From Anaerolineae bacterium (GTDB taxonomy: Bacteria; Chloroflexota; Anaerolineae; S140-20): a DNA stretch of 29,958 nucleotides. Position numbers and translations under genes: made by a program. The notes below the pieces were generated by a model, which saw nothing but the letters and a program-made list of their open reading frames with translations, made no database searches and was not told the origin of the DNA. Where the stretch lies: the NCBI GenBank assembly GCA_027021705.1, contig JALUTT010000116.1, forward strand, positions 1-29,958, written 5' to 3'. This document shows, in pieces, positions 1 to 13,564 of this stretch; position 1 is the first letter of the stretch; every line of letters begins with the position of its first letter.

Positions 1-42
1 ATGGGGGGGCTCCCAAGAGGGCTTGTCCAGACCTTCGCACCG

Positions 43-78
43 CTTCGTGCTCTTTGAGCTCTTGGTGCCCTTCGTGTT
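43..78. repeat. Four tandem 9-mers (CTTNGWGNN), a solo copy of the right arm of the 131-bp array unit
   Basis: cttcgtgct-ctttgagct-cttggtgcc-cttcgtgtt resembles the array arm cttcgtgtc-ctttgagcc-ctttgtggc-cttggtgac. Confidence 0.7.
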
Positions 79-344
79 TCCCGCCGTGGTCGGGGCGGAC
101 GAGCTGTCAACGGATTGGGGAACGGATTGAACGGGTGGGGGACGACGGCTCAGTGTCTTCACTTCCCTCAGTGCTTCAGGGATTCTGGGGGCTTTTGAAC
201 CGAGCGTGACCGGAAGCTGTTGGGAGAGAGATGCAGAGGCGTTGCGCTTCTACCGCCTCCAACCCATTTTGGTCACACTCATTTGAGAACGGATTGAGCG
301 GATGGGAGAGGACGACTCCAAGAACGGTTTATCAGAATCCGTCT

Positions 345-441
345 ACCCTCCCGCAGGTCACCAGTCGAGGGCGCTTTCAGCCCCGATGGGCTATTTGAAG
401 CACGGTCTCGCGTCGGAAACGCGCCTAACCTGCGGGAGGGT
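345..441. repeat. 97-bp REP/REPIN-like element with 14-bp perfect terminal inverted repeats
   Basis: ACCCTCCCGCAGGT (345-358) / ACCTGCGGGAGGGT (428-441); a second copy of the same length lies at 15113-15209. Confidence 0.8.
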
Positions 442-461
442 GAACCGTTACCACCGAGAAA

Positions 462-6065: not shown

Positions 6066-6076
6066 GAGGGATTTTG

Positions 6077-6231
6077 CGGTGATTACCCACAAGTGAGCGA
6101 GAGAGTGGTCCGTAGCAGGCCGTCCACGAATTTCTCACAAATGCACGAATGAGGCGGTCCTTAATTCGTGTATTCGTGCCCCATTCGTGGACGGCTAGTC
6201 TCCCTATCTCCAAAGATATGGGTAATCACCG
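6077..6231. repeat. Nested inverted-repeat element (MITE/REP-like)
   Basis: Outer 13-bp IR CGGTGATTACCCA/TGGGTAATCACCG; inner 13-bp IR GCCGTCCACGAAT/ATTCGTGGACGGC (6119-6195) with extra CACGAAT/ATTCGTG copies. Confidence 0.75.
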
Positions 6232-8134: not shown

Positions 8135-10021
8135 TTACACCCCTAGCCCGTCGGCCACCCAGCCTAGCCCCAGTTCCTCCAGCTTGCTCCGGGTCGGCGT
8201 GCCCGTGGCAACGTCCCAGCCGGCCATCGCATAGTAGAGGTCCTTGGCCTGCTCGATCTCTTCCTCGGTCAGGGCAACGCCGTCGGTGGGGCCGCCCTTC
8301 AGCGCCTGGAAGAGCTTCTTGGGCAGCCGGTCGGCCTCCCGCCCGATCCCCTCGCGGGCGTTGAAGGCCCGCAACATGTTCAACCGCCGCTCCCCCACCC
8401 GCAGGACTTCCTCGATGGTCACGTCCCAGCCGGTGACCCGCCGCACCGCCTCCACCAACTGGCCGGCGCTGTAGAGGTGCCAGGCCGGTCCGAAGACGAA
8501 CTGGCAGACGTTGACGGAGTCCAGGAAGGAGTAGAGGCACTCGGTGGTCAGCGCGAAGCGGACTTTCTCCTCGTTGAGTACCCGGTCCGGCTGGGGGTTC
8601 GTCAGCCCGATCTCCGCCATCCGCTCCGGGTAGTGGCGGTAGGAGGGGTCGTGCTCGCTGGACTGGTGGTCGGCCCCGAAGGGGTTGACGGCGTAGATGA
8701 GGCCCAGGGAGCGCTTGACCTGGGGCATGTGGGCCGGCATCTCCTGTCCTTTCACCGCCACCACCAGGTCCTGCCCGACGCCCAGCATCTCGGCGGCCCG
8801 GGCCGACCCCTCGCCCAGGATGCGCCCGAAGCCCTCCCGCCGGCCGATCAACTCGACCATCTGGACCATCGCCTCCGCGTTGCCGAAGCGCAGGTCAATC
8901 CCCCCCGTCTGCTCCTGGGTGATCAGCCCCCGCTCGTAGCAGTCCATCGCCCAGGCGATGGTCGCGCCGCAGGAGATGGTGTCCATCCCGTACATGTTGC
9001 AGAGCTGATTGGCGTAGGCGATGGCCTCCAGGTGGTCCACACCGCAGTAGGAGCCGAAGGTGGCGATGGTCTCGTACTCGGGTCCGCCATGGCGCGGGTC
9101 CACGCGGTAGGGACCTTCGGTCACCTCGACGACCCGCTTGCAGCGGACGGTGCAGGCGTAGCAGGTGTCCCGCTCCTTGAGGATGGTCTCGGCCATCCGG
9201 TGGCCGCTGATGGCCTCGGCCCCCTCGAAGTAGCCGCTCGTCCAGTTGCGGGTGGGCAGGCCACCCCGCTTGTTCTGGGAGCGGACGATCTCCGAAGTGC
9301 CCAGCATTCCCAAGCCGTAGACGTCGGACTCCGGGAAGGCAGAGGCTCCCCAGCGGGCCAGTTCGTTCAGCCCCTTGGGGTCGGCCAGCGGAGGGCGCAT
9401 CTTGCCGCGCACGACGATGGCCTTGAGGCGCTTGCTCCCCATCACCGCGCCCATGCCGGTGCGTCCGTTGGCCCGGTTGGCCATGTTGATGAGCGCGGCG
9501 AAGCGGACGCCCTTCTCACCGGCCGGCCCGACCTGGAGGACCTGCACTTTGTTGTCGCCCAACTCCTCCTTCAGGAGGTCTTCGACCTCGCCGGTGGTCT
9601 TGCCCCAGAGGTGGCCGGCGGGGCGCAGTTCCGCCTCGCCATCGTGGATCCAGAGGTAGACGGGCTCCTGGGCACGCCCGTGGATGACGATGGCGTCATA
9701 GCCGGCGAACTTCAGTTCGGCGGGGAAGAAGCCGCCCGCCTGGGAGTCCCCCACAGCGCCGGTGAGGGGGGATTTGGCCGTGGCGGTGATGCGGCTCTGG
9801 CCGGAGATGGGCGCACCGGTGAGGACGCCCAGGGAGAGGATCAGGGTGTTCTCCGGCCCCAGGGGATCAGCGCCGGCCGGTGTGTGTCGGAGCAGGTAGT
9901 GGAGTCCCAGGGCGCTGCCGCCCATGTAGGTGCGGTAGAAGCGCTCGTCGGGCTCTTCGACCGCCAACCGCCCCTCCGACAGGTGAACGTGCAAAACCTT
10001 CCCGTGGTATCCGAAAGGCAT
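8135..10021 (-). CDS. aor: Aldehyde:ferredoxin oxidoreductase family (tungstopterin) enzyme
   Basis: KSPLTG, GRTGMGAVMGSK, CYACTVRC cluster motif, GPEYET, GMDTISCG and PTRSKLEELGL motifs; AGGAGG RBS. Confidence 0.95.
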   Translation of the reverse strand: MPFGYHGKVLHVHLSEGRLAVEEPDERFYRTYMGGSALGLHYLLRHTPAGADPLGPENTLILSLGVLTGAPISGQSRITATAKSPLTGAVGDSQAGGFFPAELKFAGYDAIVIHGRAQEPVYLWIHDGEAELRPAGHLWGKTTGEVEDLLKEELGDNKVQVLQVGPAGEKGVRFAALINMANRANGRTGMGAVMGSKRLKAIVVRGKMRPPLADPKGLNELARWGASAFPESDVYGLGMLGTSEIVRSQNKRGGLPTRNWTSGYFEGAEAISGHRMAETILKERDTCYACTVRCKRVVEVTEGPYRVDPRHGGPEYETIATFGSYCGVDHLEAIAYANQLCNMYGMDTISCGATIAWAMDCYERGLITQEQTGGIDLRFGNAEAMVQMVELIGRREGFGRILGEGSARAAEMLGVGQDLVVAVKGQEMPAHMPQVKRSLGLIYAVNPFGADHQSSEHDPSYRHYPERMAEIGLTNPQPDRVLNEEKVRFALTTECLYSFLDSVNVCQFVFGPAWHLYSAGQLVEAVRRVTGWDVTIEEVLRVGERRLNMLRAFNAREGIGREADRLPKKLFQALKGGPTDGVALTEEEIEQAKDLYYAMAGWDVATGTPTRSKLEELGLGWVADGLGV

Positions 10022-10048
10022 CGTTCCCTCCTAGAGATTGCAAGGTAT

Positions 10049-10802
10049 GGAACCACAAAGGGCACAAAGATCACAACGAGGCAAAGAAATTTACTTCCGT
10101 CTTTGTGTCCTTTGAGCCCTTTGTGGCCTTGGTGACCACCACGCCCCAGAGAGAGGCAAGACCAACTCAGGGAACCACAAAGAGCACAAAGGACACGAAG
10201 TTCACAATGAGACAAAAAGACCACATTGCGCCTTTGTGTCCTTCGAGGTCTTTGTGGCCTTGGTGACCACCACGCCCCAGAGAGAGGCAAGACCAACTCA
10301 GGGAACCACAAAGAGCACAAAGGGCACAAAGTTCACAATGAGACAAAAAGGTCACGTTTCGTCTTCGTGTCCTTTGAGCCCTTTGTGGCCTTGGTGACCA
10401 CCACGCCCCAGAGAGAGGCGAGACCAATTCAGGGAACCACAAAGAGCACAAAGGACACGAAGTTCACAATGAGACAAAGAAGATCACGTTTCGTCTTCGT
10501 GTTCTTTGAGCCCTTTGTGGCCTTGGTGGCCACCACGCCCCAGGGAGAGGCAAGACCAATTCAGGGAACCACAAAGAGCACAAAGGACACGAAGTTCACA
10601 ATGAGACAAAGAAGATCACGTTTCGTCTTTGTGTCCTTTGAGCCCTTTGTGGCCTTGGTGATCACCACGCCCCAGGGAGAGGCAAGACCAACTCAGGGAA
10701 CCACAAAGAGCACAAAGGGCACAAAGTTCACAATGAGACAAAAAGATCATATTTTGTCTTTGTGTCCTTCGAGGTCTTTGTGTCCTTGGTGATCACCACG
10801 CC
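10049..10802. repeat. Tandem array A of 131/132-bp hairpin-forming units (~5.8 units)
   Basis: Units start at 10049, 10171, 10302, 10433, 10565 and 10697; each has an (A)CCACAAAG-type 9-mer arm and a complementary CTTTGTGNC arm. Confidence 0.95.
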
Positions 10803-11215
10803 TAGAGAACCAGACGACGTATACCGTGTTTGAGCAAGCGAACGTTGAAGTTCAAAATGTAGCCGAGCCGAAGGCCGGTGGCCTTTAGGTAGGACAGCAA
10901 TTGGGCTTCGTGAATAGAGCCTATGGCCTCTACCGCCTTGATCTCCGCGATGACCACTCCACCCACGAGAACATCCAGCCGCTGCCCTGGGATGAGAATA
11001 TCTTTGTAGGGAACGTTGATGACCTTCTGGCGCTCGAAAGGAATGCCGCGCAGACGGAGTTCGTAGCACAGGGCATCCTCGTAGATTCGCTCGAGAAAGC
11101 CCGGTCCCAAATGGCGATGGACCTCCATAGCCGCATCAAGCAGAGCTCGTCCCATCTGCTCGACTTCCGCCGGGATCGGCAAGAACACCTTTTTCTGTCG
11201 GCTCTTCCCTGACAT
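10802..11215 (-). CDS. GxxExxY protein (PD-(D/E)XK nuclease superfamily)
   Basis: HRHLGPGFLERIYE (GxxExxY); RLDVLV...EIKAV catalytic D...ExK; HEAQLLSYLK; LGYILNF; 137 aa; visibly lower GC than flanking genes. Confidence 0.95.
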   Translation of the reverse strand: MSGKSRQKKVFLPIPAEVEQMGRALLDAAMEVHRHLGPGFLERIYEDALCYELRLRGIPFERQKVINVPYKDILIPGQRLDVLVGGVVIAEIKAVEAIGSIHEAQLLSYLKATGLRLGYILNFNVRLLKHGIRRLVL

Positions 11216-11229
11216 CTATTTGCCCCTGG

Positions 11230-11793
11230 TCTTTGTGCATTTCCGCATATCTTCGTGTCCTTGGTGACCACCACGCCCCGAGAAAAGCGAGGCCAGCTTA
11301 TGGAATCACAAAGGGCACAAAGAGCACGAAGTTCACAATGAGACAAAGAAGATCACGTTTCGTCTTTGTGTCCTTCGAGGTCTTTGTGACCTTGGTGACC
11401 ATCACAACCCAGGGAGAGGCGAGACCAATTCAGGAAACCACAAAGGGCACAAAGGGCACGAAGTTCACGATGAGACAAAAAGATCACGTTTCGTCTTTGT
11501 GTTCTTTGAGGTCTTTGTGACCTTGGTGACCATCACAACCCAGGGAGAGGCGAGACCAATTCAGGAAACCACAAAGGGCACAAAGGGCACAAAGTTCACG
11601 ACGAGGCAAAGAAGATCATGTTTTGTCTTTGTGTCCTTCGAGGTCTTTGTGGCCTTGGTGACCACCACGCCCCAGAGAGAGGCGAGGCCAGCTTATGGAA
11701 TCACAAAGGGCACAAAGAGCACGAAGTTCACGATGAGACAAAAAGATCACGTTTCGTCTTTGTGTTCTTTGAGCCCTTTGTGGCCTTGGTGAC
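11230..11793. repeat. Tandem array B of the same 131/132-bp units (~4.3 units)
   Basis: Partial unit, then units starting at 11302, 11434, 11565 and 11697; same orientation as array A. Confidence 0.95.
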
Positions 11794-11797
11794 TGTA

Positions 11798-13114
11798 CTA
11801 GGATCTGCTCTTCACCTCCCGGACCGCGTCCTCGAAGGCGGTGAGGGTGTCGGCGATGACCTCTTCGTCGTGGCTGTAGCAGAGGAACCAGGGCTCCCGA
11901 CCATCGGCATCGGGCATGACCCCCCGCTCGATGAGAGCCATCACCAGCGCTTCGTAGAGGTCCTCGTCCCCCTGGATGTACCCCCGAAAGTCCACCGGCT
12001 CCTCATCGGTCCCCAGGATGAAGCTGAAGATGGGCGGCAACCCGGTCATCGCGTGGGGGATGTCAGCCCGGGTCAGGATCTCGTGGATGCCCTCCATAAG
12101 CTGCCGGCCCCGCCGGAAGATGGTCTTGATGATGGGCTTGGTCTCCAGCACCTCCAGCGTGGCGTCGGCGGCAGCGGTGCCGACGGCGTTGCCGGTGTAG
12201 GTGCCGCCGTGGGAGACGCGCCCCGGCTCCACCGTCGCCATCACCTCCCGCCTCCCGCCGATGGCCGCGATGGGGAAGCCGTTGCCCATCGCCTTGGCAT
12301 AGGTCACCAGGTCGGCCCGCACCCCGAAGTACTCCTGCGCCCCGCCGTTGGCGATGCGGAAGCCGGTCTTCACCTCATCGAAGATGAGGACGATGCCGTA
12401 CCGATCGCACAGCTCCCGAATCTTCTCCAGCCAACCGGGGCGAGGGAGGATGCCGGCGGCGTTGCCCAACAGGGGCTCCACGATGATGGCCGCCAGCTCG
12501 TGCCAGCGGGCCTCCACCGTCTCCTCCAGCCGTTCCACGTCGTTGAAGGGCAGGTTGATGACGTAGCGGCGGATGCCCTCGGGAATGCCGGAGCTCATCT
12601 GGACGTTGATGGGGTTGCGGCGGGAGCCCAGGGCTGAGGCCGGCGTCCCGGCCGTGGTGAAGAGGACGTAGTCGTACATCCCGTGGTACTGGCCCTCGAA
12701 CTTGATGAACCGCTCCCGACTGGTGTAGGCCCGGGCGATGCGCAGGGCGTGCATCGTCGCCTCGGTGCCCGTGTTGGAGAGCCGCACCTGGTCCACACCG
12801 GTCATCCGCACGATCCGCTCCGCCACCTGGACCTCCAGGGGGGTCGTCCAGGCGAAGGTGGTGCCGTCACGGATCGCCTCGGCCACCCGCTCTACCACAG
12901 CCGGGTAGGCGTGGCCCAGGATGATGGGGCCGAAGGCCAGCCGGTAGTCAATGTAGCGATTGCCGTCGGCGTCCCAGATGTAAGCCCCTTCGCCCCGCGT
13001 CGCCACCAGGGTCTCCTCATCGCCCCAGTAGCGGAAGTTGGAGTTGACGCCGTAGGGGATCACCTGTTTGGCCCGTTCAAAGAGGGCGCGGGTCTTGGTC
13101 AGGTCTCGTGCCAT
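11798..13114 (-). CDS. Class III PLP aminotransferase, glutamate-1-semialdehyde aminomutase-like
   Basis: GVNS, DADGNRYIDY, GTEATMHALRIAR, KFEGQYHG, LIFDEVKTGFR and catalytic K in YAKAMGNG; GGAG RBS favours ATG 13114 over 13126. Confidence 0.9.
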   Translation of the reverse strand: MARDLTKTRALFERAKQVIPYGVNSNFRYWGDEETLVATRGEGAYIWDADGNRYIDYRLAFGPIILGHAYPAVVERVAEAIRDGTTFAWTTPLEVQVAERIVRMTGVDQVRLSNTGTEATMHALRIARAYTSRERFIKFEGQYHGMYDYVLFTTAGTPASALGSRRNPINVQMSSGIPEGIRRYVINLPFNDVERLEETVEARWHELAAIIVEPLLGNAAGILPRPGWLEKIRELCDRYGIVLIFDEVKTGFRIANGGAQEYFGVRADLVTYAKAMGNGFPIAAIGGRREVMATVEPGRVSHGGTYTGNAVGTAAADATLEVLETKPIIKTIFRRGRQLMEGIHEILTRADIPHAMTGLPPIFSFILGTDEEPVDFRGYIQGDEDLYEALVMALIERGVMPDADGREPWFLCYSHDEEVIADTLTAFEDAVREVKSRS

Positions 13115-13162
13115 AGGAAACTCCATGTTGCGTGATGCGTGATGCGTATGGAGCGCGGCAGG

Positions 13163-13564
13163 CTATGGGAGGCGGGCGCGACGCCGGTCGTTCTCGCGGG
13201 CCAGCCGCTCGAAGAGGCGGACGATCTCCCGGATGGGCATCTTGGCGGCAGCATCTCGGTAGAAGCGGGCCGCCGTTTCCTCCAGCCGCTCGGCCTGGCG
13301 CAGCCGCTCCGCCTCGTCCACCGTGGCGTCCAGATCCACAGTGTACGCCTCGCCCTCCAGGCCGGTGATGGATTCCAGGATCATCTCGTTCACCAGCTCC
13401 CGCCGGGCCTGCTCCAGCCGCCGGTGCCGCTTGCGGGAGCCCCGGGCCAGCTCCGCGAAGTCCTCGGCCAGCCGCCCCCGAGCTCCCGCTTCGTAGAAGG
13501 CAGCCGCCCGCTCCTCCAGCTCCAGCGCGAACTTCAGAATCGCCCCGAACGTTCCCAGTTCCAC
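13163..13564 (-). CDS. Ferritin-like / rubrerythrin-type four-helix protein
   Basis: Duplicated A-x-x-LEE...FY helical pattern; GTG start with GGGGAGG RBS. Confidence 0.75.
   Translation of the reverse strand: MELGTFGAILKFALELEERAAAFYEAGARGRLAEDFAELARGSRKRHRRLEQARRELVNEMILESITGLEGEAYTVDLDATVDEAERLRQAERLEETAARFYRDAAAKMPIREIVRLFERLARENDRRRARLP

Follow-up and report, generated by a model that had tools for sequence, protein, structure and literature searches.

The repetitive extragenic palindromes (REPs) of Pseudomonas and enterobacteria, and the REP doublets forming hairpins (REPINs), are associated with REP-associated tyrosine transposases (RAYTs) in the parts of three accounts on which we draw (PMC3116915, PMC3337134, PMC3733652), and a REP is there described as a 20-40-bp palindrome with a conserved GTAG or CGTC tag at one end (PMC3733652). 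A second described system is the intervening sequence (IVS) of the 23S rRNA of Coxiella burnetii with its protein S23p, which belongs to the family PF05635 (PMC4990558). The function of the GxxExxY proteins is listed as unknown in the section that we used of a 2012 survey of the PD-(D/E)XK superfamily (PMC3424549). In this work we have analysed a GxxExxY gene that stands between two arrays of hairpin repeats in contig JALUTT010000116.1 (C116) of an Anaerolineae genome assembly (GCA_027021705.1, here G000; 183 contigs, 5.19 Mb); the window is this whole stretch of 29,958 nucleotides. Units of gene plus repeat with the look of selfish DNA are widespread, and this locus is an extreme local case of them. 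We have found no published description of such a unit, and a literature search that left supplements aside returned no paper linking GxxExxY, PDDEXK_3, TIGR04256 or PF13366 to repeats.

The repeats of the window form array A (10053..10801), with six hairpin-plus-linker units, and array B (11306..11797), with four, both without an assigned strand and both delimited by Tandem Repeats Finder (TRF), repeat search and unit alignment. The units of array A start at 10053, 10175, 10306, 10437, 10569 and 10701 and are 122, 131, 131, 132, 132 and 101 nt long; those of array B start at 11306, 11438, 11569 and 11701, with lengths of 132, 131, 132 and 97 nt. According to TRF, 10054-10802 has a period of 131 (5.7 copies, 91% matches) and 11250-11793 the same period (4.1 copies, 87% matches), and the start-to-start spacings of the repeats run 131, 132, 131, 132, 606, 131, 131 and 132. 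Each unit is built of a left arm CCACAAAG-RG-CACAAAG-RR-CACRAAG, that is, three CACRAAG words in a 9-nt phase, a loop of 32 nt, a right arm CTTYGTG-TY-CTTYGAG-SY-CTTTGTGG and a linker of 47-48 nt. The 26-nt arm pairs are 92% complementary. Standard pairs fill 89.6% of the 251 pair cells of the ten hairpins vs 37-60% when the partner is slid by 1-3 columns, with one A.A position unpaired in all ten units; mean column identity over the hairpins is 90%, and loops and linkers are also conserved among units. One unit folds at -24.4 kcal/mol as DNA (z -3.66) and at -52.5 kcal/mol as sense-strand RNA (z -5.06), and in neither case was any of 200 shuffles as good. The arrays are not due to chance. A search of Rfam at E up to 1 gave eleven sub-threshold matches, mostly microRNA-like hairpins and all far under their gathering scores.

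The 101-nt last unit of array A is cut by the GxxExxY gene and ends at its stop codon, base 10802 continuing the linker and at the same time opening the complement of the stop codon. On the other side, a 15-nt leader with an AGGGG ribosome-binding-like motif (11216..11230, minus strand) separates the ATG from the first repeat-derived word, which begins at 11231. This word opens a degenerate arm, CTTTGTG-CA-TTTCCGC-ATAT-CTTCGTG (11231..11257, no strand assigned), which is followed by a linker copy (11258..11305, likewise without strand); leader, arm and linker copy were all assigned by reading the sequence. In the sense of the gene the arm reads CACGAAG...CACAAAG, and this is the canonical left-arm position in close homologues. 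Its inverted partner is the far arm (10701-10726) of the complete hairpin nearest the 3' end of the gene (10701..10783, no strand), so that the two bracket the gene as an inverted pair, with one extra arm in between. The gene is also flanked by a direct repeat of right arm and linker start (10758-10802 vs 11231-11277), with the middle word degenerate in the 11231-11257 copy. At its other end, the 97-nt last unit of array B stops at the base preceding the stop codon of the aminotransferase gene.

A BLAST search of the whole 5.19-Mb genome with one unit found full-length copies at the window locus only, and the other 14 matches were arm-level pieces of 29-98 nt. Since the full-length 131-nt unit occurs solely here, the ten units would be products of local tandem amplification and not of transposition. 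CACRAAG forms clusters containing both orientations at 9 places spread over 7 contigs, the two window arrays included; 100 permuted words gave 0.43 such places on average and 11 at most. Compared in inverted orientation, the unit ends TCACCACGCC... and ...GGCCTTGGTGA agree at 8 of 11 bases, and no target-site duplication is definable. The junctions of the cassette and its target duplication are likewise beyond definition because the occupied and empty sites are too diverged.

The gene itself (10802..11215, minus strand) encodes a 137-aa protein of GxxExxY/PDDEXK_3 nuclease fold, matching PF13366 (8.1e-39, 133.1 bits against a cut-off of 22) and TIGR04256 (GxxExxY; 1.7e-38, 131.5 bits against a cut-off of 35). 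D81, E91 and K93 are invariant across the six GxxExxY genes of this genome, and among 45 family members G39, E42, D81 and K93 are invariant while Y45 and E91 are kept in at least 90%. An AlphaFold2 model from the 45-sequence alignment (predicted local distance difference test 95, predicted TM-score 0.86) has an alpha-beta core and corresponds to a minimal 115-aa PD-(D/E)XK core without extra domain. Its structural matches are generic PD-(D/E)XK nucleases such as lambda exonuclease, Cas4, Hjc and restriction enzymes, the best in a wide VIA-align search being Cas4 SSO0001 (Z 7.8) and Hjc (Z 6.2), with none at Z of 8 or above. Foldseek against the PDB returned nothing at E of 0.001 or below, a sequence search of solved structures no match at E up to 1, and PADLOC a sole match to Cas4b (E 0.0054). 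A homodimer prediction from two copies of the protein scored 0.01 and bears neither way. On another contig of the genome (C36:10098-10838; L032) we observed a fused two-domain GxxExxY protein whose second domain has lost E-x-K (VAAFAV), and similar tandem matches exist in G001, G011, G012 and G013; these fusions are only a hint that GxxExxY proteins may dimerize. The family is large and patchy: 6356 GxxExxY proteins match the window query at E of 1e-10 or below, and it is present in 17 of 31 related genomes with 0-10 matches each, fragments included.

The original prediction, made from the letters of the stretch, had described most of this anatomy, namely a gene flanked by co-oriented arrays of ten 131/132-nt units, a unit of three-word arms with a ~32-nt loop, a ~26-bp stem and a linker, an array A reaching the stop codon and a first word 15 nt from the ATG, and a protein with intact D...ExK residues. 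TRF, spacings and unit alignment agree with the arrays, the ten aligned units with the unit, the junction bases 10802 and 11231 with the two ends, and the invariant residues with the intact active site.

The evidence that this is more than a local peculiarity comes from 80 homologous loci of many phyla, found with the single window protein as query. An inverted repeat connects the 150 nt upstream of the gene with the 150 nt downstream at 35 of 73 loci vs 2 of 248 control windows taken from the same loci at a shift of 1.6 or 2.4 kb (odds ratio 113, p 5.5e-24, although such p-values from the arm tests overstate the case, the loci of related genomes not being independent). At 29 of 72 loci vs 3 of 247 controls, one 6-mer is present in two or more copies upstream and its complement in two or more copies downstream, and phased 7-12-nt arrays were present in 31 of 153 flank windows vs 23 of 882 control windows. 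The polarity of the arms is also regular, since in at least 21 of the 29 positive loci the CAC-words lie upstream and the complement downstream, and 3 are reversed. The closest homologues (L035-L040; 67-74% identity, Chloroflexota) carry the CACAAAG/CACGAAG word. In L036, L037 and L038 the upstream side reads stop-AAC-CACGAAG-GG-CACAAAG-GGCA-CACGAAG-GT-CACGAAG, then the ribosome-binding site and the gene, and the downstream side stop-ACC-CTTCGTG-TC-CTTTGTG-AGTC-CTTCGTG-CC-CTTCGTG, then the ribosome-binding site and the next gene. Judging from these flanks, the usual form of the element appears to be a gene between two tight inverted arms and not a gene within an array. Tandem hairpin arrays stand beside the gene at 4 of the 80 homologous loci elsewhere, and on both sides, as in the window, only at L088; in this genome they are common, at 4 of its 6 GxxExxY loci.

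The words themselves are related to the lineage of the protein. In a maximum-likelihood tree of 78 GxxExxY proteins, a short-branched clade of 33 (support 96/96) is drawn from at least nine phyla, and CACGGA words were detected by a strict test in 16 of its members. The window protein falls in a Chloroflexota clade of 8 (support 100/99) with CACAAAG/CACGAAG words. Within this single genome, where the family gives 7 matches at 6 loci, the words at other loci are CACGGAT (C162), ACGCAGAG (C145) and CGCGAAT (C83), and TRF reports other short repeats adjoining the GxxExxY genes at C52 and C36. The repeat word travels with the protein clade and not with the host. By inspection, most words across clades fit a loose C-R-C-N-R-A-G/T pattern. 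Both the enrichment of hairpin repeats beside GxxExxY homologues and the co-variation of protein clade and repeat word had been put forward as checks in the original prediction and were borne out; its picture of a gene embedded in an array describes the window correctly and does not extend to the usual form.

The site of L036 offers a series of different states of the element at one position in relatives. We have followed it through 20 orthologous loci in which the upstream gene is 76-100% identical. Full cassettes are present in four (L152, L154, L157 and L159), one of them with its left arm tandemly triplicated; L156 has two tandem gene-less hairpins of the same word, L163 a solo right arm, and L158 and L165 remnants. 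Six loci (L164, L166, L167, L169, L170 and L172) have short empty spacers, L168 has other phased words, and L162 and L171 were unreadable. The three others (L155, L160 and L161) hold an unrelated gene for an HExxH-motif protein of 289-312 aa, and three GTCGCAGG words stand before it. In more distant genomes the site is mostly empty. This series is what an insertable unit decaying to hairpins and solo arms should leave.

The window locus has its own empty counterparts. The aminotransferase and the aldehyde:ferredoxin oxidoreductase (AFOR) genes that border the block are 1776 nt apart in the window vs 55 nt in G018 and 61 nt in G029, among 30 relatives examined; in these two genomes the genes are adjacent, with orthologue identities of 82% and 79% for the aminotransferase and 73% and 70% for AFOR, respectively. 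Because the relatives have both genes 55-61 nt apart, the 1.74-kb block is an insertion into an operon spacer. The gap of G029 (L119), otherwise 'empty', contains ACGTAAA words arranged as a mini-hairpin, which extends into the final codons of the aminotransferase, and that of G018 (L116) has ACGTAATCCGT words there. A simple occupied state is found in L034, also from Anaerolineae, whose GxxExxY protein (67% identical) is the tree partner of the window protein (support 98/42). Its gene precedes an AFOR gene by 69 nt and is accompanied by one right arm but no array. As for the host genes, the class-III aminotransferase (11798..13126; PF00202, 3e-69) is the upstream gene of the operon and AFOR (8135..10021; PF01314 at 7.9e-127 and PF02730 at 6.6e-76; orthologues in relatives at 59-73% amino-acid identity) the downstream one, and both lie on the minus strand, as does the GxxExxY gene. 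A spacer of 31 nt (10022..10052, minus strand, by sequence reading) leads from the last hairpin to the AFOR start and retains a GGAGGG ribosome-binding site. We searched the minus strand of 9800-13400 for promoter- or terminator-like sites and found none; because of this, of the 55-61-nt spacer in relatives and of the common orientation of the genes, read-through transcription of the cassette within the operon is plausible. The annotated neighbours of the arrays in the window are metabolic, transport and regulatory genes.

A quite different account would be that the arrays come from a mis-assembled metagenome bin, and the assembly does comprise 183 contigs, many of which end in repeats. Short-read contigs cannot confirm the number or order of the units. 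Contigs of run X1, however, match without differences across three junctions (9900-10127, 10753-11316 and 11764-11900), and in that run five unit-specific pieces are covered at 62-165x with a single-copy depth of ~73x; X1 may be the source sample and is hence not independent. The hairpin-to-gene junction (10645-10840) is also present, at ~93% identity, in run X2, which comes from another study. We consider that an assembly artefact has very little probability. Run X3 has one extra CACAAAGGG word after 10053, in the first unit. In a contig of run X4, another hydrothermal-vent metagenome, 10078 is joined to 11798 with 787 unaligned letters replacing 1719, and a related population therefore has a shorter or different insert.

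To explain these data we propose that a widespread selfish cassette, made of a GxxExxY gene and the phased-word arms cognate to it, resides at this locus and has been locally amplified, a reading to which we give about an even chance. The cassette would consist of a PD-(D/E)XK nuclease gene between inverted arms of 3-4 phased 7-nt 'CAC-purine' words each, and would be transcribed by read-through of the operon. The word arrays of the cassette would be recognised and cut by its nuclease, whether as duplex iterons or after folding into a hairpin or cruciform; host break repair would then copy or retain the cassette in a homing-like manner, leaving gene-less hairpins, solo arms and tandem arrays as by-products. 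In the window, a gene-less hairpin derived from the arms of the cassette would have been amplified in tandem to ten units through slippage, or through unequal recombination of one arm with another. We prefer the inference that the nuclease acts on its own arms, with the chances for and against it about equal.

Several of our results weigh against this proposal. Arms were detected by the tests used at 40-48% of the homologous loci only, and the statistics share the dependence among related genomes already mentioned. With a crude intergenic-gap control the enrichment is much weaker (28 of 56 vs 24 of 84, odds ratio 2.5, p 0.013); gene-less copies in the other gaps and the roughness of the open reading frame (ORF) calls are the probable reasons. 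Within the ten units we found no covariation beyond that of shuffles, the units being too alike. Furthermore, the six PF05635 (23S rRNA IVS protein/Avd-like) four-helix-bundle genes of this genome (C63:23350, C155:16257, C89:21009, C73:73513, C10:24947 and C144:55293) are all bracketed by inverted arrays of 8-nt words, with a different word per locus and without a nuclease, and because these genes carry analogous arms without one, inverted phased arms may not need a nuclease. The most abundant CAC-purine word hairpin of the genome, that of CACGAAT, is moreover the core of a 153-nt miniature inverted-repeat transposable element (MITE) with 103 near-full copies (median identity 97%), 13-nt terminal inverted repeats (TIRs) and flanking direct repeats of ~7-12 nt, mostly ~7-9 nt, visible at many copies. 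The dispersal of this MITE looks like ordinary DDE-type transposition.

The arms could instead work at the level of RNA, pairing in the operon transcript around the ORF to give a stem that is processed (for example by RNase III) or insulating, with the tandem hairpins as stabilisers or processing sites of the mRNA and the nuclease as cargo without part in the spread. The strong fold of the sense-strand RNA, the minus strand without terminator-like site and the preserved ribosome-binding sites of the downstream genes are in line with this, and so is the co-orientation of the cassette with its two neighbours, seen at homologous loci in 56 of 70 cases upstream and 59 of 69 downstream by crude ORF calls. 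Co-orientation at 80-86% is little above what is usual for adjacent bacterial genes and we have given it little weight. Analogous arms at all six loci of PF05635, a family known from the intervening sequences of 23S rRNA (PMC4990558), also point to RNA. However, G.U-type mismatches do not outnumber A.C-type ones on the sense strand of the long-range stems of 42 loci (62 vs 78, p 0.20, not significant), the G.T pairs of the window units lie mostly on the antisense (+) strand, and pairing in the transcript accounts for the tolerance of the insert and not for the arrival of gene and arms at new sites or in new phyla; we therefore regard a purely RNA-level element as unlikely. A closer partnership with RNA, in which the arrays yield structured RNAs that bind or guide the nuclease, had been entertained in the original prediction; such guide or scaffold RNAs would make the system resemble CRISPR or TnpB with its omega-RNA. 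Stable hairpins do adjoin a nuclease gene, but the sequences between them are conserved linkers instead of unique spacers, the usual form has two short arms in place of an array, the protein is a bare catalytic core and the Rfam matches are nowhere near threshold, and this idea fell away to the point that we give it hardly any credence.

It is also conceivable that the repeats are independent REP- or MITE-like elements, spread by RAYT-type Y1 or DDE transposases or by slippage, and that the gene merely shares permissive intergenic spots with them. The genome is indeed rich in repeats, for TRF lists 578 rows whose period is at least 40 nt, and 505 segments of phased words were counted; it contains two Y1_Tnp genes; its CACGAAT hairpin spreads within a MITE that has TIRs and direct repeats; the gap of G029 holds a small hairpin of ACGTAAA words; and several different inserts occupy the orthologous site in the relatives of L036. 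On the other hand, the word tracks the protein clade over at least nine phyla and differs among the paralogues of this one genome, the arms have a fixed polarity, the shifted controls at the same loci were positive in 2 of 248 cases only, and the Y1 genes are flanked by their own, different GC-rich palindromes. We find this explanation rather improbable, and the cassette that carries its cognate arms remains our preferred reading. A wider generalization is possible but doubtful, namely that the GxxExxY cassettes (7-nt words in an 8-10-nt phase) and the PF05635 cassettes (8-nt words) jointly constitute an unrecognised class of bacterial mobile DNA in which a very small protein reads phased words on either side of its gene; GxxExxY would cut the word arrays, folded or as duplex, and so drive copying, excision and tandem amplification without a known transposase, and the gene-less hairpins of many phyla, whether dispersed or in tandem, would be its non-autonomous offspring.

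Other repeats of the genome complete this description. The two Y1_Tnp genes (RAYT/IS200-type, PF01797; C14:16109-16453 and C49:17825-18169) each sit in their own GC-rich palindromic repeats, which form an array of 109 nt x 16 at C14 and are of CCCCGCCGTGGAACCGGCGGGG type on both sides at C49. The possibility that the CACAAAG hairpins are the REPs of these Y1 genes was rejected, the Y1 genes being flanked by other palindromes. Three unrelated kinds of small gene in this genome (GxxExxY, PF05635 and Y1) thus each sit in 'their' repeats. A copy of the 153-nt MITE lies in the window at 6076-6231, with TIRs GGTGATTACCCAC and GTGGGTAATCACC, three CACGAAT-type words inside and an 8-nt direct repeat GGGATTTT; a search of the assembly for an autonomous partner found no terminal-repeat pair 250-6000 nt apart. 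At the contig start, window positions 1-460 combine, as a mosaic, an arm of CTTCGTG/CTTTGAG, words of the AACGGATT/ATCCGTT family and a palindrome CCCTCCCGCAGG...CCTGCGGGAGGG; these modules recur on many contigs and at contig ends. Two CRISPR-like arrays (C32:16-3429 and C172:628-1087) have a period of 72-73 nt and 37-nt repeats, GTTTCAATCC... and GTTTCAGTAT....

GxxExxY is a very large orphan family, and its fixed genomic grammar gives a first testable hypothesis on its function. In this grammar the gene lies between inverted arrays of a clade-specific word, and at the corresponding position relatives may have gene-less hairpins, a solo arm or an empty site. The same grammar would account for a class of intergenic hairpin and tandem repeats that sit within operons and break metagenome assemblies. 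If the nuclease acts on the arms, this would be a selfish system of repeat plus enzyme built on a fold that is not known to mobilise DNA alone. The window is useful as a specimen in that its amplified state, with ten units, can be set beside a simple orthologous state (L034) and beside empty sites (G018 and G029).

With regard to known systems, a homing endonuclease is one possible model for the enzyme. I-Ssp6803I is a free-standing PD-(D/E)XK homing endonuclease, and by analogy a small nuclease gene could spread by the cutting of an empty site and copying through repair, with the flanking repeats supplying homology; here, in contrast, there is no intron or intein context, and the target would be a repeated hairpin and not a unique allele. 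CRISPR arrays differ in that the loops and linkers of the window are conserved among units, without unique spacers, and the neighbours are metabolic, transport and regulatory genes. The 23S rRNA IVS of Coxiella burnetii is closer in plan, being, in the part of the source used here, a unit of ~0.4-0.5 kb with a small ORF inside stem-forming inverted repeats, inserted in a transcribed region with host function intact (PMC4990558). The IVS family PF05635 shows the same arm design in this genome, and inverted repeats enclose the GxxExxY ORF at nearly half of the homologous loci. The GxxExxY cassette, however, is placed in the spacer of an mRNA operon between protein-coding genes and not in rRNA, its ORF is PF13366 and not PF05635, its arms are arrays of phased words and it has no G.U bias on the sense strand.

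The original prediction had suggested a RAYT-independent REP-like system, and the layout and the independence from the Y1 genes uphold it, whereas the dispersal of the 131-nt unit does not, full copies being confined to the window. As in the REP/RAYT systems, to the extent that the cited accounts describe them, a gene is flanked by its own short palindromic repeats, gene-less hairpins exist, some in tandem, and the repeat sequence is matched to the protein lineage (PMC3116915, PMC3337134, PMC3733652); the two Y1 genes in their own repeat arrays are classical examples inside this very genome. Unlike these, the protein here has a PD-(D/E)XK fold (PF13366) and is not a Y1 HUH transposase, and no strand-transfer mechanism is evident for a lone nuclease. 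The arms are 3-4 phased 7-nt words instead of a single 20-40-bp palindrome, and the units begin with CCACAAAG, without the GTAG or CGTC tag given in that account of REPs (PMC3733652). The gene lies between tight inverted arms inside operons and the 131-nt unit is not dispersed. MITEs and insertion sequences (ISs) share with the cassette the existence of gene-bearing and gene-less forms with the same ends, the gene-less forms folding back, and the true 153-nt MITE of this genome even has a word hairpin as its core; the cassette, by contrast, has no gene of a transposase family, and no TIR plus target-site duplication is definable for it or for the 131-nt unit. The cassette is therefore similar in layout to REP/RAYT or to MITE/IS elements, and it falls short of what defines REP/RAYT systems and rRNA intervening sequences, and apparently also of what defines MITEs.

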